A stretch of 64,000 bases of DNA from assembly GCA_964558645.1 (NCBI GenBank), contig CAZLEV010000006.1, forward strand, positions 124,263-188,262. Direction: 5' to 3'. The position numbers were made by a program, and so were the translations under genes. The notes under the pieces are model-generated. The model had not been told where the DNA came from, ran no database searches, and saw only the letters and a program-made list of their open reading frames with translations. Within the stretch, counting starts at the first letter, position 1. Each line of letters starts with the position of its first letter. The DNA is from an uncultured archaeon. Lineage in GTDB: Archaea; Asgardarchaeota; Thorarchaeia; Thorarchaeales; Thorarchaeaceae. Shown one piece after another: positions 4,597 through 38,055 of the stretch.

Positions 4597-4731
4597 GAGG
4601 GAACAGGGAGTCTAACTTCTTCCGAAGAATCTCGAAATGCTTCTGCTTGTAGTTGCTCGGATCTGTCAAGATACCCCTCAATTGTGAGTATCAACCGCGA
4701 ACTATCGTGATACTGCTATGGATTCTGAAAG

Positions 4732-4761
4732 AGAGTATTCCGAAACTTCTATAACCAGAAA
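4732..4761 (+). repeat. Left copy of 30-nt inverted repeat (BRE/TATA-like promoter)
   Basis: AGAGTATTCCGAAACTTCTATAACCAGAAA matches reverse complement of 12090-12119 at 27/30. Confidence 0.8.
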
Positions 4762-4778
4762 GCCAGCAGAAACGACCC

Positions 4779-4868
4779 AGTTGGCTAGGTGATGTAGAAG
4801 CGCTGTCTTGCCAAGTCGCCGGAAGTTGCGATGGTTTCTGCTTCTCAGATAGTTGTTTCAGTCAACTA
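4779..4868 (+). ncRNA. Candidate K-turn / C/D-like small RNA
   Basis: Starts ~25 nt after the TATA-like box; CUA-GGU-GA-UG / CA-GA-UAG K-turn, AGAAGC/GCUUCU stem, alternative terminal stem AGUUGGCU/AGUCAACU. Confidence 0.4.
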
Positions 4869-7800
4869 GTTTCCATTAAATCCCTCAGAAACGAGTAGGT
4901 CTACAAGCCGTCCAGTCCGGAGTGCTGCAGGCAGTCGTATATCCTCAATTGAACTCACATCAAGTCTAACTGAATGTATCAATCCACTCGATACATCTAT
5001 GAACTGTTCCACCTCTGCAAGCAAGGCCACATCATAAATGTTCATTCTTTCCTCCTCGAGCTTCTTCAGTTGTGAATTCTCGGACAAGCCATCTAACTTG
5101 ACAGTAAGCACAGGATGTCGGAGTCGGTGCATCGCCATGATTTTCTCATCATAACGAATATACATGGTCACCGGAGGGGACATTTGCGCAGAGAGAAGCT
5201 GTTCTACATTCTTCGGATAGACATAGCTCTCCAAGAAATGCCTGCGATGCACCAGCGGTTTTAGAAATGATAGGCTGAACCACTCCTCCTCTTTTCCGCC
5301 ATATCCATACTCAATATCAGTGAGATGATCCCACGTCAAGATTGCGCCCTCTTCAGTAGTGACACTGCGCCCATCGAGGGCAGTTGACCGAAGAAAGGCC
5401 ACAACCTCCGCGGTTCGGGGAGTTCGGAACTCGTACTGCGGCTCCCGCGATGACCTGCACGTGACAACGTAGGTTTCTTGACTCAAATCCACGGTCACCT
5501 CACATGTGACAGACATCACTCTATGCTGTTGTTCTGCAATCCTCTCCAGCACCGGATGAAATCTCTCAAGACTGTGTGTGGGTGCTCCAATGGGGCACTC
5601 TTCCAGATTGAGAGCCGTTTTCATAGAGAGAGGGGAGAGTCGAACCCACAAGAGAGAGGTGACCCCCTTTGAATCTTGGTGGCTTCCGTAGTCTAGTCTG
5701 CCAACGAGCCCCCATTCATCGTTATCATGACTCCATTCCCATAGAATCTCTTGGCCGCCTACATTGGTCACGGCCAGTGACTCTTCAATCCAAAGGCAAG
5801 ACGCATCAAGCAGCTCTTGTGCACCGTCACTGAGTTCTGCTGGATTGCTCGAACACCACTGGAATCCCAAACGTAGCCTCTCCTGTTTTTCTCTCATAAG
5901 ACCACAGACAGCTTGACCGTCTGGGCGTTCGAAGAGGAACCATAGATGGTATTCATCACCCACTAGAAGCCCTGGCCTATAAATGGCAGGCAGGGAAGAT
6001 ATCTCGCTAACACGGTCGTCCACTTCGGTTTCTCTGGTTGTGAGGTATTCTGCACGCGAGAGGAGATTTGCGAAGATTGTCTGAAAGTCGTACACTGACT
6101 GGATTCTCTCCTGAGATGCCTGAACCGGGGCGAATCCCATCTGATACGGTAGCCATTCAACCACAGATTCCCAGAGGGGAATCGCAGCCGAGTGCCCCTC
6201 ATCCCGAACCGTCTTGGCCAGTGCAGCCATGATTCCCAAGAGGAGATTATTCCCATAAAGAGCAAGGGCATCCGGATTCTCACGGCGAATATCGGCAAGG
6301 AGCAGACGATTCTCCGCACTGAGAGTCTCACCTACCAGCTCACGATACGGCTCAATCAGTTGCCAGGCTCGTGCACGACTGGGGTGACGGATGAGGAGGT
6401 CTCTGACTTGGAGAAGTACACCAACGTAATTACCGGGCTCATCGGAGTTGCTCAGGGCACCCTCGCACAGTGAATGCACCTGTCTACACAGAACATACAT
6501 GTCATCGTGTGCAGGGAACTGGCATTTCAGGAACCTTGCCGCATCTCGTAGCCGTCTAATCTCTCTCCTCCGTGCAGTCGGACTATCCAGAAAGATCAGC
6601 TCGGTCTTCCCGTAGAGGGGAGGTTTTCGCGTGTAGTGCTTCTCAGCTTCAGTTTCTCTCTGTGTCTTATGATGCCAGTGGCGTGGGATGCCCACAGGAC
6701 CTGCATACATCTTCGCTTCAGTTGCTCGTTTCGGAATTGGGGGAGGGTGAATGGGACAGAGATGAAGTCGTTCTCTTAGAGGAGGGCTCTCCGTCTTCCT
6801 TACCAAGTGGCTAGAGATGGAATACGGTGTGCTTTGCGGTTCAGCCACCGCTACACTCATTGATCCGTTCCTAGATCGAAGAAGAGTCGGCGAAACAGTC
6901 ATTGCCTCAGCCTGGAGATCTTGGACTGCGTGTTCAGTGAGGTAGGAGATTGTGCTCTGGATGTTTCCCAGTATCACATCTCGTCCGTGCATTGATTGCG
7001 AAGTGACCATCTCTTCCATGATATCTTCCTCGGCGACTATCTTATCGCGCTTCGAACCACCCCTAAACTTTCGCGCCCACTTCCTTAGGACGGGCACCTC
7101 AATCATAGTGCTCCAAGGAGGGGCGCTCGTCGGTGTGTCCTGTACGATTATTCGTTTCTCATCGGCATAGGGAGTCTGCCAGCCGAACACTCTGGGAGCA
7201 GTGGGTATATTCCAGATGACTTCATCCAGCTGGAAACGCCTGGGAGAGTCATGGGGCAGAACATCAAGACACGGTCGTTGGTACGTTTCATTCATTCTTG
7301 TGGCTTTCACGCCACTATCCACCCAGATGATATTGACGTTGTTGTCAGGGAGCGTGTCAAGAATGGAACATTCGAGCGCCAAGAGTCGTTCCTTCTGCGA
7401 GGTAGGAGTCATCTGATTCAGGTCCGCCCAGCCATCTACGATGATGACACGCTCCGTTTCTTCCAACCCAGAGATGGCAGTGAGGCTCTGAATTGTGTTT
7501 GATTCGCCTTTGAGAAACGACTCGATGTCACCGCTCAGGTCCATGAATATGATATTCTCAAGCAAATCCGAAGACTTGTCGTCCAGTCCCAAACGCCGGG
7601 TGCGCAGCCTCTCAGGAAGACTCCCCAATAGGTCAAGCCAATAGACTGAGGGAGACGACGAGGAGTGTCTCACGACTTCATCAATGTGATGTAAGAGGTG
7701 CCAGTTCTTGGCGTGCCATGCAGCAGCATTTCCTCCAGAGGTGGGCGAGGGCACAGAGATATACTGGGTGAGGATGCGTTCGTCAGCATTCCGATTCTCA

Positions 7801-9551
7801 AAGGGATTGTCTACCTTGATGTTGTCTGCTATGGCCGCCTCTCGCATCGCACCTACGGGTCCCGAACAGGGAGCCATGAGGAGAGCTATTCGGCCACCTC
7901 CTGTCGATCTATTGAACCTGTGGGAGGTCCATCCCTTTGTAGAAACGAAGTCTGCAGGATTTGCCTGTAGGCTGGAGAGCATTCCTTCAAGAGCATCTAA
8001 TATCGACTCGTAGCTCTCAGCCGTATCCAAAATGACGACGCCCTTCCATAGCTCGCGCGGAGCAAATGTGTCCTGAGGCACTAGTTGTCTGTACTCACGA
8101 ACCAGTGTCTTCTCATAGAGAGCTAGCTGGTCACGTGTCCGTTTGATGGGGAGAGAGGTCGATATGGTTGACCATTCCTGAGGCATCAGCCGCGTCTTCC
8201 AACAATGCAATACCGGGGCAGAGTGGTCTTTCTTCGTCCGTGGTCGCATCCAATAAAGATTGTAATCGAAGGCAGTCTTCGTCTTGAGTTCAAGGATCAT
8301 CACAGGAGTCCAAACAATACGCAGTCCAACACTCCGTCGAACAAAGAGCACCAGGTCCGCCTTGCCATGACCTCTGTTTGAACGGATGGGCACCTCAGCA
8401 AGGAACTGTCTGTCTGTGGGACACTCCAGCATCGAGTCCCCGGCAAACAGCACCGACTTCAGAGATCGTGGATGATGGAAGACCGAGAGGAGTACCCTGT
8501 GCCAGTCATTGCCCTCGCGCTGGCTGATGGCCGAAACCTGCTCTCGGAGTCTCATCAAGTCTGGCTCCGTGATGTACTCCGAGCCGATGTAAGCGAGGAT
8601 CCTGTCACAAGCATCCCGGACCTCTTTCGATGTCGAACTACTGCGAAGTGACTGTGTCTTAGACTTGAGGAACTCTACCGTAAGGGGGGCCGTGTCCTCC
8701 CACTCAAGTTGGTCAGAAAGACGCTCTCGTCTACCAGCGCGACGCCCATACACGGCCCGTATCTCCAGAACGATATCTCTCAGTTCTCTGTCCGCTTCGG
8801 GGTAGAAGTCCTTTCGTCCTGTCATTCCCTCAGAATAGAACCAGTCAAGGAATGGCTTGAGTCTGTGGATAAGGAGGCGGATGTATCGATGTGCCTCGTT
8901 TCGCGGAACGTTGTAGATGAAGAGCTGCCGACAGAGCTCCTGTACGTGTCCGCGGATCATGTCTACAAAATCGAGTTCTGGAAGTGTGGGGTGTGAGAGC
9001 AAGAAACGTGGGCTCTTGGAGTCACCAGGATAGCCTGCTCGCCAATACTCCCTCACGGCATCGTCAGGAGTGTCTTCTGATACAACTGAACGAGGAACGA
9101 ATGTCTTGCGCCCATCGGCATACTGCAAAAACAGGTAGTACTGCGGTTCGGGAAAGGGGTAGTGAGTTGTAGCGAGATCTCGGAGACGAGCTCCCGCATA
9201 GTTCAGTAGACTATTCAGCGGACCCACACTTCCCTCCCGCCAGCTGTATACCCGTTTGAACTCTCGATTGCCGTACCGTTTCGTGCTGTGCCAGATGATG
9301 TCCAGCCACCTCTGACGCAAGAGATGCTCGATATTCTGGACAGAAGAGAAGTCATGGGGGCTCAAGACCTGATTCTCTTTCAGCTCCTTCTTCGCACTAG
9401 TCCAGACCTTAGTCATGGAGTTGACATACTTCTGGGTCTGGGAGCTACCTCGGGCCTGCGCTAGTCTGACTAAGGCAGCAAGCCCGGTCATGACTGATTG
9501 GGCCAGAATCTGGCTTGGTTTCCCTGAACTCCCTAGACGCGACACTTCCAT
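4866..9551 (-). CDS. 1561-aa protein with PD-(D/E)XK nuclease-like domain
   Basis: LAEVPI...GKADLVLF...ILELKTK...QLALY motif set (RecB/Cas4-like spacing); remainder unrecognised. Confidence 0.75.
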   Translation of the reverse strand: MEVSRLGSSGKPSQILAQSVMTGLAALVRLAQARGSSQTQKYVNSMTKVWTSAKKELKENQVLSPHDFSSVQNIEHLLRQRWLDIIWHSTKRYGNREFKRVYSWREGSVGPLNSLLNYAGARLRDLATTHYPFPEPQYYLFLQYADGRKTFVPRSVVSEDTPDDAVREYWRAGYPGDSKSPRFLLSHPTLPELDFVDMIRGHVQELCRQLFIYNVPRNEAHRYIRLLIHRLKPFLDWFYSEGMTGRKDFYPEADRELRDIVLEIRAVYGRRAGRRERLSDQLEWEDTAPLTVEFLKSKTQSLRSSSTSKEVRDACDRILAYIGSEYITEPDLMRLREQVSAISQREGNDWHRVLLSVFHHPRSLKSVLFAGDSMLECPTDRQFLAEVPIRSNRGHGKADLVLFVRRSVGLRIVWTPVMILELKTKTAFDYNLYWMRPRTKKDHSAPVLHCWKTRLMPQEWSTISTSLPIKRTRDQLALYEKTLVREYRQLVPQDTFAPRELWKGVVILDTAESYESILDALEGMLSSLQANPADFVSTKGWTSHRFNRSTGGGRIALLMAPCSGPVGAMREAAIADNIKVDNPFENRNADERILTQYISVPSPTSGGNAAAWHAKNWHLLHHIDEVVRHSSSSPSVYWLDLLGSLPERLRTRRLGLDDKSSDLLENIIFMDLSGDIESFLKGESNTIQSLTAISGLEETERVIIVDGWADLNQMTPTSQKERLLALECSILDTLPDNNVNIIWVDSGVKATRMNETYQRPCLDVLPHDSPRRFQLDEVIWNIPTAPRVFGWQTPYADEKRIIVQDTPTSAPPWSTMIEVPVLRKWARKFRGGSKRDKIVAEEDIMEEMVTSQSMHGRDVILGNIQSTISYLTEHAVQDLQAEAMTVSPTLLRSRNGSMSVAVAEPQSTPYSISSHLVRKTESPPLRERLHLCPIHPPPIPKRATEAKMYAGPVGIPRHWHHKTQRETEAEKHYTRKPPLYGKTELIFLDSPTARRREIRRLRDAARFLKCQFPAHDDMYVLCRQVHSLCEGALSNSDEPGNYVGVLLQVRDLLIRHPSRARAWQLIEPYRELVGETLSAENRLLLADIRRENPDALALYGNNLLLGIMAALAKTVRDEGHSAAIPLWESVVEWLPYQMGFAPVQASQERIQSVYDFQTIFANLLSRAEYLTTRETEVDDRVSEISSLPAIYRPGLLVGDEYHLWFLFERPDGQAVCGLMREKQERLRLGFQWCSSNPAELSDGAQELLDASCLWIEESLAVTNVGGQEILWEWSHDNDEWGLVGRLDYGSHQDSKGVTSLLWVRLSPLSMKTALNLEECPIGAPTHSLERFHPVLERIAEQQHRVMSVTCEVTVDLSQETYVVTCRSSREPQYEFRTPRTAEVVAFLRSTALDGRSVTTEEGAILTWDHLTDIEYGYGGKEEEWFSLSFLKPLVHRRHFLESYVYPKNVEQLLSAQMSPPVTMYIRYDEKIMAMHRLRHPVLTVKLDGLSENSQLKKLEEERMNIYDVALLAEVEQFIDVSSGLIHSVRLDVSSIEDIRLPAALRTGRLVDLLVSEGFNGN

Positions 9552-9743
9552 CCATTGGTGATGATTATTTATATAGATATTCTAGACTATCTGTAAGAAA
9601 TTAAATTCTCTCATAATCCTTTATTCTGGGTAAAAACGCCTAATAATCCTTCTAGACCGATAAGAAGCAATCTTGCTTGGTAGCTTTATAACGGTTTATG
9701 AGATTATAACTTCTGAGCCACACAAGAGAGAGGTGTACTGTTG

Positions 9744-11897
9744 ATGACGAAAGAAGCCCGGCGTCGTCCCCGGGAGCATGCTGCGAGGGACCCCTCGGAG
9801 AAGCAACAGACAATGGATGACAGCTTTATATCGGTCACGTCAACAACGCACCACGGTACGGGTCTGAAGTATCTGACCACCGAGTTCTCCCTCTGCTCCG
9901 TTCATCGGGGGGTGAACAAGAGGGGGAAGGGAAGGGGACCAGACCCACGATTCCGAAGGGGTGAGCTTGCTGCACTCCAGGAGCGCCTCTCGGCGACCAC
10001 CGGGCGGAAGGTCAACGACATCGACCTCTCTCTACTTGGCTCATATTTCGAAACGTTTGTCTCACTGGTGAACCAGGTCCTTGAACGCGTGTATGCTGAC
10101 AAGGGACGGTTTGCGTTTCTCGGCGAGGAGCTGGCCGGTTATCCAAGGCAGGGCTATGCCCTTCTCAAGAGTGAGGATTCTGTGAGATACAGGAGTCATC
10201 CTGAGGTCCAGGAGCAGTGCTTCGAGCGGCTGTACCGCAACGCTCTGGAGCATGCTGCGCGTATCATCCAGTCCAACTGGTTGCGACGGCAGCTGATGAA
10301 GGCAGCTATCGAGTATCTCTGCGAGAACGAGAGCGACCTGACCCGGCTGCTGAAGAACCGGTATATCGCAAGCGACCTGACCAAGGCAGTTCGGGGAGCA
10401 TGTGAGTCCACGAAGAACAACGGGACCGGGTTCTACTACAGTCTCTCGGTCCTGAAGCAGCTCCGTCGAAGACTGGACCACTCGATCCTCGAGAAGCGAG
10501 GGGAACCGCTTAGCACTCGCCCCTATCAGCGGGGGAGGATTCGCAGGTATCTCAAGGAGAAACCGACAGCCAACAGCATCCTCAAGATTGCAAGAGGGAA
10601 ACTCCGTCAGTGGCACAAGAGGGGCTATCCCTTCGCCACTCCAAGGATGTACTCCCACACCGAAGACTTCTCGGCCAGCACGGAGAACTCTCCCAGTCAA
10701 GGATACTGGTACTCACAGGACTTGGAGAAGGAGAACGAGGTGCTGTTTTTCCTGAAGCTCCCTGAGCCCATGGAGGGAGAGGCACATGAAACCTCCCCCT
10801 ACAAGACCAGGACTCTTGCGTTTCGTTTCCTTGATTGGCTGCCCCGGGCCGCAAGAGAGGACAGAGCGAGGGCAGAGGAGGCCAAGGCTCAGGGCAAGCA
10901 CCTGAGAGCAAAGAAGCTTCGATTTCGAGCACGGAAATACGAGGACCAGCATGAGCAGTTGATCAACACCATCGAGCTTCAGCATGCCGTCTATCAGCTG
11001 AACAGATGGAAGAACCGCAAGAACGCCGACTCCGAGAAGCTAGCACAACTGAAGGAGAAAGTGCAGCGACTGAGAGAGTCCCGTACCTGCGGTCCACCCG
11101 CTCTCCTCTTGCGGGGTCATCGTGTCATTCTAGACATACCCTTTCTCCCACCCACTCAGGAGATGGTGGATGAAGTCCTTGGAACGCGGGAGTACACCCG
11201 CAAGGCTGGTGCTGATCGTGGCATCCGTGTACCCATCGTGCTCTCGGTGCGGAACGGTGAGGGCTACGTGGATGAGTTTCTCTCTCTGGAGGAACTGGTG
11301 AAGAAGCGCAATCTCCTCAGGCATCAGACCAAGGCACTCTCCTCACGGGTTGCTCTCATGCGCAACAACTGGGAACGTAAGCATGGCAAGGACTATTCGA
11401 GACCGGGCTCTCTCAGGAAGAAGGAGCGACATCTGGATGCTCTCTGGAAGAAGGTCCGCAGACTCGATCGCGAGATTGCCCGACAGATTGCCTCGAGGGC
11501 TGTGTGGTTCTGCGAGAGGTACGGTGTCAAGACGCTCTATTTCGAGAACCTGAAGAACTACCAGGCACCAAAGGGCTACGGGGATCTATCATGGCGGCTC
11601 TCATTCAATCTCTGGTCGCAGGTGCTTGAGGCCGTACGATATATGCGTCAGGTCCTGGGGCATCGTTTCGGTGGCGTCTGGACGGTGACTCCAGCGTGGA
11701 CCTCTCGAAAATGCCATGTCTGCGGGGAGACAGGTGTAAGGGTGGAGCGAGAGGGATCGAAAGAGGAGTACCGTGGGGGCGAATACTTCTACTGTGAGAA
11801 CTGCGCTGCATACTTCCATGCCGATGTCAATGCGGCAAGGAACATCATTGAAGTTGATATGAGACAACCCAGTGCCGTTGCTGGGAGGACGAGCTAG
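9744..11897 (+). CDS. tnpB: Large TnpB/Cas12f-like RNA-guided RuvC endonuclease (717 aa)
   Basis: RuvC-I GADRG, RuvC-II YFENL, TSRKCHVCG and FYCENC zinc ribbon, RuvC-III HADVNAARNI; GAGGTG RBS before ATG 9744. Confidence 0.9.
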   Translation: MTKEARRRPREHAARDPSEKQQTMDDSFISVTSTTHHGTGLKYLTTEFSLCSVHRGVNKRGKGRGPDPRFRRGELAALQERLSATTGRKVNDIDLSLLGSYFETFVSLVNQVLERVYADKGRFAFLGEELAGYPRQGYALLKSEDSVRYRSHPEVQEQCFERLYRNALEHAARIIQSNWLRRQLMKAAIEYLCENESDLTRLLKNRYIASDLTKAVRGACESTKNNGTGFYYSLSVLKQLRRRLDHSILEKRGEPLSTRPYQRGRIRRYLKEKPTANSILKIARGKLRQWHKRGYPFATPRMYSHTEDFSASTENSPSQGYWYSQDLEKENEVLFFLKLPEPMEGEAHETSPYKTRTLAFRFLDWLPRAAREDRARAEEAKAQGKHLRAKKLRFRARKYEDQHEQLINTIELQHAVYQLNRWKNRKNADSEKLAQLKEKVQRLRESRTCGPPALLLRGHRVILDIPFLPPTQEMVDEVLGTREYTRKAGADRGIRVPIVLSVRNGEGYVDEFLSLEELVKKRNLLRHQTKALSSRVALMRNNWERKHGKDYSRPGSLRKKERHLDALWKKVRRLDREIARQIASRAVWFCERYGVKTLYFENLKNYQAPKGYGDLSWRLSFNLWSQVLEAVRYMRQVLGHRFGGVWTVTPAWTSRKCHVCGETGVRVEREGSKEEYRGGEYFYCENCAAYFHADVNAARNIIEVDMRQPSAVAGRTS

Positions 11898-11993
11898 TCC
11901 AAGAAACAATCAGCGGCCGATTGCTCAGCCGGTATTGATCTGCATTAGATATGGAAGACGATTGGAATTGACCTATACCCATTAAGGAGTTGA

Positions 11994-12070
11994 TGGCGGG
12001 CCAGGAGGGATTTGAACCCTCGACCAACAAGTTAAGAGCCTGTCGCTCTGCCTAACTAAGCCACTGGCCC
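11994..12070 (-). tRNA. tRNA-Lys(CTT), CCA encoded, no intron
   Basis: GGGCCAG/CTGGCCC acceptor, anticodon arm ACAGG-CTCTTAA-CTTGT, T arm GAGGG-TTCAAAT-CCCTC. Confidence 0.97.
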
Positions 12071-12089: not shown

Positions 12090-12119
12090 TTTTTGGTTAT
12101 AGAGGTTTCGGAATGCTCT
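12090..12119 (-). promoter_or_regulatory. tRNA-Lys promoter (BRE/TATA); right copy of 30-nt inverted repeat
   Basis: CGAAACCTCTATAA ends 26 nt upstream of tRNA 5' end; 27/30 identical to 4732-4761. Confidence 0.75.
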
Positions 12120-37840: not shown

Positions 37841-38055
37841 AGAGGCACATATCAGGGTACACCAACATCTATAGCAAACTTGGATAGAGTTAGACATGTA
37901 GTAGATGAAAGTTTGCACAATGAGGGGCCTTCAGTGCGGAGGTCAAAAATTCTGTTCCTGAACGCTCATCCGGATGTCAAGGAGTTCAATCCACTGCCGT
38001 TTCTAGGAGGACAACTCTCCTGTGTCTAAGATTGTCCAACCTACAATTAACGGCT

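Follow-up and report, generated by a model that had tools for sequence, protein, structure and literature searches.

An IS607-type TnpB paired with a Cas1 fusion beside tRNA-Lys in a Thorarchaeota genome, with a putative guide to tRNA genes

Features and proteins of the locus

The window, that is the whole stretch of DNA analyzed here (64,000 nucleotides), comes from an Asgard archaeon of the Thorarchaeota, a host of the type anticipated by an earlier note made from the sequence alone. The following features were identified.

4739–4755, plus strand: promoter-like motif of tRNA-Lys, second copy, located at the left junction
4782–4791, plus strand: decayed 5′ fragment of tRNA-Lys (scar), at the expected spacing from the promoter and homologous to a clearer scar in genome G001; no IS607 left end follows
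4866–9551, minus strand: aCas1 fusion of 1561 aa, head-to-head with tnpB, recognized by fold search and residue conservation
9552–9743, no strand: AT-rich (34% GC) divergent intergenic region common to aCas1 and tnpB
9744–11897, plus strand: tnpB, 717 aa, with WED-REC-WED order, a helical insert (366–445), RuvC residues D491/E601/D694 and a Zn ribbon (C657/C660/C684/C687)
11868–11916, plus strand: putative omega-RNA scaffold and IS607-type right end, with a hairpin and pseudoknot, ending in the GG core (11915–11916)
11917–11932, plus strand: putative 16-nt guide, CCGATTGCTCAGCCGG, with a 14-nt identity to the tRNA-Lys(CTT) of genome G031
11994–12070, minus strand: intact tRNA-Lys(CTT), convergent to tnpB, a guide-mismatched allele and putative resistant or rescue copy
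12096–12112, minus strand: conserved promoter-like motif upstream of tRNA-Lys(CTT)
37855–38053, plus strand: non-coding IS607-type miniature element of ~200 bp, with the same left-end and right-end/scaffold motifs

The tnpB ORF, preceded by an RBS-like GAGGTG (9730–9735), is real and intact, as first read. D491, E601, D694 and the four Zn-ribbon cysteines are invariant in 101/101 aligned homologues (687–732 aa), the D/E/D residues are kept in all 16 full-length tRNA-linked TnpB copies tested, and 490 aa precede RuvC-I. Profile searches place the C-terminal part in TnpB/Cas12f, with scores below those required by the NCBIfam guided_TnpB profile (58 vs a cut-off of 100 bits) and by the Cas12f profile NF049972 (52 vs 450 bits), and no relatives outside its own family were detectable for the N-terminal 480 aa. 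The predicted structure (pLDDT 80.6) has the WED-REC architecture that, with the RuvC D-E-D and the Zn ribbon, is a feature of the TnpB/Cas12f superfamily. It matches Cas12f and TnpB structures over residues 44–708, the best matches being Cas12f (AsCas12f, Z 18.0, rmsd 4.2, 374 residues aligned; ISFba1 TnpB, Z 14.7). The size expansion is real, and stems from a disordered N-terminus, a REC region of ~220 aa (75–293) and a three-helix insert (366–445). This insert is the long helical segment described in the earlier note, but by secondary-structure order it lies between WED strands 357–363 and 453–457 and not in REC, which is enlarged separately.

Identity as Cas12f (type V-F CRISPR) was rejected on the NF049972 score and on the lack of a linked array, no CRISPR array being found in the window. 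Identity as Fanzor was rejected because the RuvC-II glutamate, E601, stands 56 residues before C657 of the Zn finger, the canonical TnpB position, and not 6 residues before it, as is the criterion for Fanzor (PMC13565253). Identity as an IS200/IS605 element was rejected because no Y1 transposase (PF01797) was matched in this 93% complete genome, and the ends are of IS607 type. An ordinary CRISPR array with cas1 and cas4 is found at L035 (G000 C4:107677-111516), unlinked to the window element.

For the 1561-aa protein encoded on the opposite strand, Pfam, PDB-sequence and Atlas searches returned no identity, and comparing its profile with that of a single Cas1 gave a non-significant E of 0.12; its identity came from the fold search alone, with a model spanning residues 55–900. 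The N-terminal portion is a Cas1 catalytic helical domain with the triad E75, H187 and D197, conserved among aCas1 homologues, and matches three Cas1 structures with the moderate scores of Z 9.3, 8.9 and 8.6 over 128–133 residues. It is followed by a PD-(D/E)xK/Cas4-like nuclease domain (E386, D399, E421, K423; Z 8.1), a RecA-fold domain (Z 11.7) and a C-terminal part outside the model. The statement that no cas gene is present therefore does not hold, as ORF 4866–9551 encodes a Cas1-fold fusion. aCas1 adjoins tnpB in 46 of the 67 loci with enough upstream sequence. At six loci (L057, L084, L102, L110, L113, L117) it is in tandem with tnpB and not head-to-head, which indicates that its orientation within the transposon has flipped more than once.

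A pairing of aCas1 with TnpB in Asgard archaea has been described computationally before (Altae-Tran et al., 2023, PMC10691335), and the present family is very likely one of the two groups reported there, Cas1H-Asgard-1 or -2, with which it shares a large TnpB, a diverged Cas1 fusion, an Asgard host and multiple copies. Altae-Tran et al. suggest that aCas1 acts as the transposase, and report a GTTCACTCA motif after the hypervariable region; their main text makes no mention of tRNA and does not name the group carrying the motif. Relative to what is described there, the 717-aa type differs in its IS607 ends, in its serine transposase and in lacking GTTCACTCA.

The transposon family and its ends

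Among the 221 TnpB homologues retrieved, all those listed with an organism name are from Thorarchaeota, and a tnpB-family match was obtained in 25 of the 36 genomes sampled from the same family. This genome alone has three full-length and up to seven partial tnpB copies at 64–74% identity, the partial ones mostly cut by contig ends. A complete element, L094, consists of a left end, the serine transposase gene tnpA, aCas1, tnpB and a right end, its TnpA being an intact 211-aa ORF for a MerR-HTH serine transposase upstream of aCas1/tnpB. The IS607 transposase model NF033518 scores above cut-off in 18/86 family genomes, and in six of these (G022, G036, G009, G033, G034, G005) full-length transposases are matched on the strand of tnpB, ~5–6 kb upstream of it. 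In this genome the IS607-specific model matches a broken tnpA only, and a Pfam Resolvase search across the genome gave no match. Since left end, TnpA and right end are all present in L094, and IS607 transposases lie 5–6 kb upstream elsewhere, the likely transposase is the serine recombinase; with complete relatives of this type, that role probably does not belong to aCas1.

In nearly all relatives a right-end motif, ACAAT(G/C)AACG(G/A), lies within ~40 nt of the tnpB stop and is followed by variable sequence. The same right end occurs at 48 sites in this genome, and miniature elements of 176–210 bp with a matching left end at a minimum of 24 sites. The site orthologous to the miniature element at 37855–38053 is without the element in G002. 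For one miniature element, two sister genomes have the empty site, with the sequence AGGG|TCAC, corresponding to a crossover at GG with no target duplication; the evidence for this crossover is that empty site plus the NGGG left flanks, and full-size elements, which share these ends, would probably behave alike. As regards family identity alone, I am highly confident that this is an IS607-group transposon of Thorarchaeota. Its complete IS607-type form and miniature derivatives were not found described in the literature searched.

The gene is thus not stand-alone, as the earlier note had it: it belongs to a multicopy family, lies head-to-head with aCas1 and has an IS607-type right end after its stop codon. 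It groups with equally long relatives, present in multiple copies and with recognizable IS ends, and this is largely the outcome that the note had set against its own reading, with IS607 in place of IS200/IS605. The note's observation that the window holds neither a CRISPR array nor a serine or Y1 transposase was borne out; the family's serine transposase had no match in the 64,000 nt, and neither had the left-end motif near 4600–4866. On its sequence, the window copy is best described as a truncated derivative of an IS607-type element, which has lost its left end and transposase.

Several features are shared with previously described IS607 elements, such as that of the CboIStron TnpB (bioRxiv 10.1101/2023.11.20.567912): a MerR-HTH serine transposase, the GG core, a G-rich target without duplication, a scaffold ending in CGG, a guide in the right flank and, putatively here, homing by cutting of empty sites. 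For IS607 TnpB, a G-rich TAM and the cutting of empty alleles are established. This family differs in the size of TnpB (about 710 vs about 400 aa), in a scaffold conserved over only about 45–70 nt, in a 1550–1900-aa aCas1 passenger and in immobilized copies with conserved tRNA guides.

Further copies were noted along the way. The miniature elements retain the omega-RNA scaffold and might act as a source of guides in trans; two of them are 99.5% identical, suggesting recent movement, although the only assembled tnpA is broken. An IS607 element at G000 C5:222120-227012 combines a broken tnpA, a cargo of membrane or secreted proteins (795 aa, 233 aa) and a 3′ fragment of tnpB. A second TnpB type, 560–590 aa in its full-length copies, likewise pairs with aCas1, and GTTCACTCA was found after four copies of this type and after 0/102 of the 717-aa type. 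The four copies lie in G000, each with a short variable segment between the conserved scaffold and the motif:

C2:431076-432761: second-type tnpB copy
C10:75040-76815: second-type tnpB copy
C26:35666-37342: second-type tnpB copy
C28:45-1448: second-type tnpB copy

The C2 copy, paired with aCas1, adjoins tRNA-Gly(TCC), and a duplicate scaffold and tRNA 3′ half are found beyond its aCas1.

Scaffold, guide and tRNA alleles

In the predicted scaffold fold, the loop of the 5′ hairpin (CCGTT) pairs with the terminal AGCGG to form a pseudoknot. Across 88 sequences the pseudoknot pairs covary (C-G 56, T-A 12, T-G 12, C-A 6), as does a swapped stem pair (G-C 75, C-G 8), with a Fisher p of 1e-4 for sequences that are not independent. 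Nucleotide conservation starts about 45–70 nt ahead of the right end, and the putative omega-RNA may reach further upstream than 11868. Rfam has no model for this scaffold.

Directly behind the scaffold, CCGATTGCTCAGCCGG equals the 5′ end of the G031 tRNA-Lys(CTT) over 14 nt, immediately following the opening GGG of that gene, and departs from the tRNA-Lys(CTT) of this genome at 4 of 12 nt. A search of the assembly for sites matching at least 13/16 behind GG found none besides the guide's own template. Among 90 distinct guides, 6 agree at 12/14 or more positions with a tRNA site behind GG, vs 17/3000 random sites; tRNA-like guides beside other copies also match Leu(CAG) (at the anticodon), His and Ile genes, and the guides behind miniature elements are not tRNA-like. 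A relaxed ARAGORN run for tRNAs returned noise. In an incomplete literature search, no paper was found on tRNA-directed TnpB guides or on TnpB in Thorarchaeota.

I collected 16 tRNA-Lys loci, part of which were recovered with a guide-shaped pattern, from at least three separate TnpB clades. Likeness of the guides to tRNA-Lys extends over positions 1–16 and collapses at 17. At 16/16 loci the guide has 2–5 mismatches in 12 nt to the adjacent tRNA, exceeding shuffled pairings (49 vs 40.6, p 0.006, a value overstated by the relatedness of the genomes, as are the other p-values), and 7/16 guides perfectly match the tRNA-Lys allele of another genome over 12 nt. All 14 element-free genomes read CCAG at tRNA-Lys positions 4–7, vs 4 of the 16 element loci; in those four, it is the guide that departs from the allele there. 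The tRNA changes at element loci are compensated in the acceptor stem. In G001, G029 and G071 every mismatch in the first 12 nt is a G-U wobble, so that self-immunity is uncertain at those three loci.

The Lys-linked TnpBs fall into three clades among mobile copies with variable guides, and do not form a single one (monophyly rejected, p-AU 2.6e-7); this polyphyly could also have arisen if genes were replaced at one old insertion. The Lys loci of G029, G071, G100 and G108 have a tnpB fragment only, or none. At L177 (G108) and L197 (G100) the right end and tRNA-Lys guide are kept with no tnpB detectable nearby, and these are possible solo guide RNAs. At L124, the guide after the tnpB stop matches the anticodon arm of tRNA-His, and the tRNA-His gene next to it is interrupted by an intron within this target, so that introns may act as escape devices. 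Across L182–L207, the tRNA-Lys(CTT) genes of Thorarchaeota have zero to several introns at varying positions.

The organization around the tRNA differs between genomes with and without the element. Element-free genomes show the promoter, tRNA-Lys and an NMO gene, beside SHMT. At element loci, the left junction has the same promoter and a tRNA fragment ending 6–10 nt past GG(G), no IS607 left end was found, and an inverted intact tRNA with its promoter comes after the guide. In the window, the tnpB stop and the 3′ end of tRNA-Lys(CTT) are 96 nt apart, as reported in the earlier note. Left scars were seen in G005, G031, G001 (7 kb further out) and L070, and a tRNA-Leu scar in L128, where the 5′ half of tRNA-Leu(CAG), to 8 nt past GG, is followed by aCas1, tnpB, the guide, an inverted tRNA-Leu and, further on, a 3′ remnant. 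No 3′ remnant was seen in the window, and those found elsewhere may be att sites of unrelated islands; the tRNA-Lys locus does gather the repeated 3′-end duplicates typical of integrated islands. In G001 the block is oriented opposite to that of the window. The left scar was also considered as a general Cas1-type target duplication, and this was rejected because at non-tRNA loci the observed value equals the null.

Relative to the G001 orthologues, dN/dS is 0.11 for tnpB and 0.20 for aCas1, both at dS 0.45, with host genes at dS about 0.5; these values indicate that both genes have been retained by purifying selection from the time this genome and G001 diverged. In clades B and C, selection on intact genes is seen over divergences of dS above 1. 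The earlier suggestion of a domesticated gene thus stands insofar as the element has lost its left end and transposase and is maintained at tRNA-Lys, but the sense differs from that intended. The tRNA-Lys gene, mere context in the note, is the apparent target.

A possible homing mechanism

The best explanation, to which I give somewhat better than even chances, is an immobilized cassette that spreads by homing into tRNA genes and brings a resistant copy of the tRNA with it. An ancestor of the window copy would have gained a guide to the 5′ end of tRNA-Lys(CTT), most simply by insertion at the GGG that opens the tRNA, and would then have lost the left end and transposase; the loss is observed, its place in the order of events presumed. 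As other IS607 elements do, this one would form its omega-RNA from the right end and the next ~16 nt of flank, with a TAM of NGGG judging from the insertion sites. TnpB would cut guide-matching tRNA-Lys alleles of other strains, met through DNA exchange, and repair would copy the cassette or protect it, the left scars representing repaired cuts. The adjacent inverted tRNA-Lys, whose seed is unlike the guide, would act as a rescue copy that keeps the host alive, and the cassette could persist because its conserved target is always available. The nuclease and RecA-like domains of aCas1 may aid repair, or aCas1 may renew the guide. Against tRNA homing, the inverted tRNA copy and the scar are unexplained by a simple IS607 insertion, whose junction would be at GG.

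A bolder version, which I regard as unlikely, is a cleave-and-rescue drive in which the Cas1 fusion renews the single guide from the tRNA alleles of the population, giving array-free adaptive targeting and an arms race that reshapes host tRNA sequences. A hint of guide renewal is that the window guide equals a natural allele over 14 nt and differs from the G001 guide at 5/16 positions; the neighboring spacer diverges as fast, and drift plus selection is another account of the difference.

In its mode of action, the proposed homing system would most resemble a free-standing homing endonuclease such as T4 SegB, but guided by RNA. T4 SegB promotes inheritance of the T4 tRNA region (PMC13565253), and SegB and SegF cut a related allele of a nearby conserved gene and spare their own through sequence differences, as is putatively the case here. 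The sequence pattern of guide and tRNA alleles is the one expected under intronless homing, in which non-self would be cut, self spared and inheritance biased. The system differs in that recognition would be RNA-guided, chromosomal and archaeal, and in that the native tRNA gene appears broken and replaced.

Type V-K CASTs are known to home to tRNA genes by a Cas12-family guide. A comparable RNA-guided integration, with TnpB binding the tRNA gene and aCas1 integrating the cassette in or beside it, is improbable in my judgment, even though aCas1 retains the Cas1 triad, lies upstream in 46/67 loci and is kept at tRNA loci without TnpA, and the scars are confined to the 6–10 nt zone. The distance from the tRNA 5′ end to the right end ranges from 119 to 240 nt across loci, where a CAST-like mechanism would give a fixed distance; non-tRNA loci show neither target duplication nor scar beyond the null; the mobile ends are IS607-type with a serine transposase encoded; and, unlike in Cas12k, the catalytic residues of TnpB are intact, and there is no TnsBC. 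Casposases, which prefer tRNA gene ends (PMC5137440), offer a further parallel in that a Cas1-family protein is tied to tRNA loci, but PolB, terminal inverted repeats and the 15-bp duplication of casposons are absent here: a test for these found no general duplication, and no PolB-sized ORF between the junctions.

Retention by the host for defense or regulation, whether the guide destroys islands or viruses that enter with tRNA-Lys or its att site, or mismatched binding modulates tRNA transcription with no cutting, seems to me a poor prospect. Vertical retention with host-like dS under purifying selection, the standing of tRNA-Lys as an island hot spot with repeated 3′-end duplicates, a target overlapping the transcription start and the three loci with wobble-only mismatches are in its favor. 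Yet the guide matches the tRNA 5′ end and the island duplicates are 3′-end pieces, different tRNAs and positions are targeted (Leu anticodon, His, Ile), and changes in the host tRNA seed are confined to loci beside the element, as would be expected if the host were under pressure rather than benefiting. Passive decay of IS607 copies that had inserted at the GGG of redundant tRNA copies, with the guide likeness as leftover flank, is already disfavored and less probable still. In its favor are the GGG at the start of tRNA genes, which is the IS607 target, the fragmentary or missing tnpB at some loci and the broken state of the only tnpA in this genome; it would not account for a likeness in which exactly 16 nt remain tRNA-like and the next bases are lost, for intact genes under selection at dS above 1 (clades B, C), or for at least three origins with allele-specific avoidance. 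Least credible of all, and very improbable, is the idea of the earlier note that this is a lone enzyme at an intermediate stage between TnpB and Cas12 or Fanzor. Cas12 evolution does offer a parallel to the combination of a short scaffold with an enlarged REC and an insert in WED, and the best structural matches are Cas12f (Z 18.0), but the gene is a member of a multicopy transposon family, its RuvC-II glutamate is canonical, the CRISPR-cas1 locus of the genome lies elsewhere with no array linked to tnpB, and the N-terminal 480 aa are without detectable relatives outside the family; nothing points to such an intermediate.

The family poses the puzzle of an IS607 transposon with a Cas1 fusion, its catalytic residues conserved, beside an RNA-guided nuclease. 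The published suggestion that aCas1 is the transposase would be revised, and the pairing bears on how Cas1 and TnpB met at the origin of type V CRISPR. The enlarged TnpB, with its scaffold of roughly 50 nt, is a candidate editing enzyme. If the tRNA-homing explanation is true, TnpB no longer serves here to restore its own transposon but homes persistently at a conserved housekeeping gene and has a resistant copy of that gene built in, as a natural counterpart of engineered home-and-rescue drives, and the evolution of tRNAs in Asgard archaea would bear a visible trace of this.
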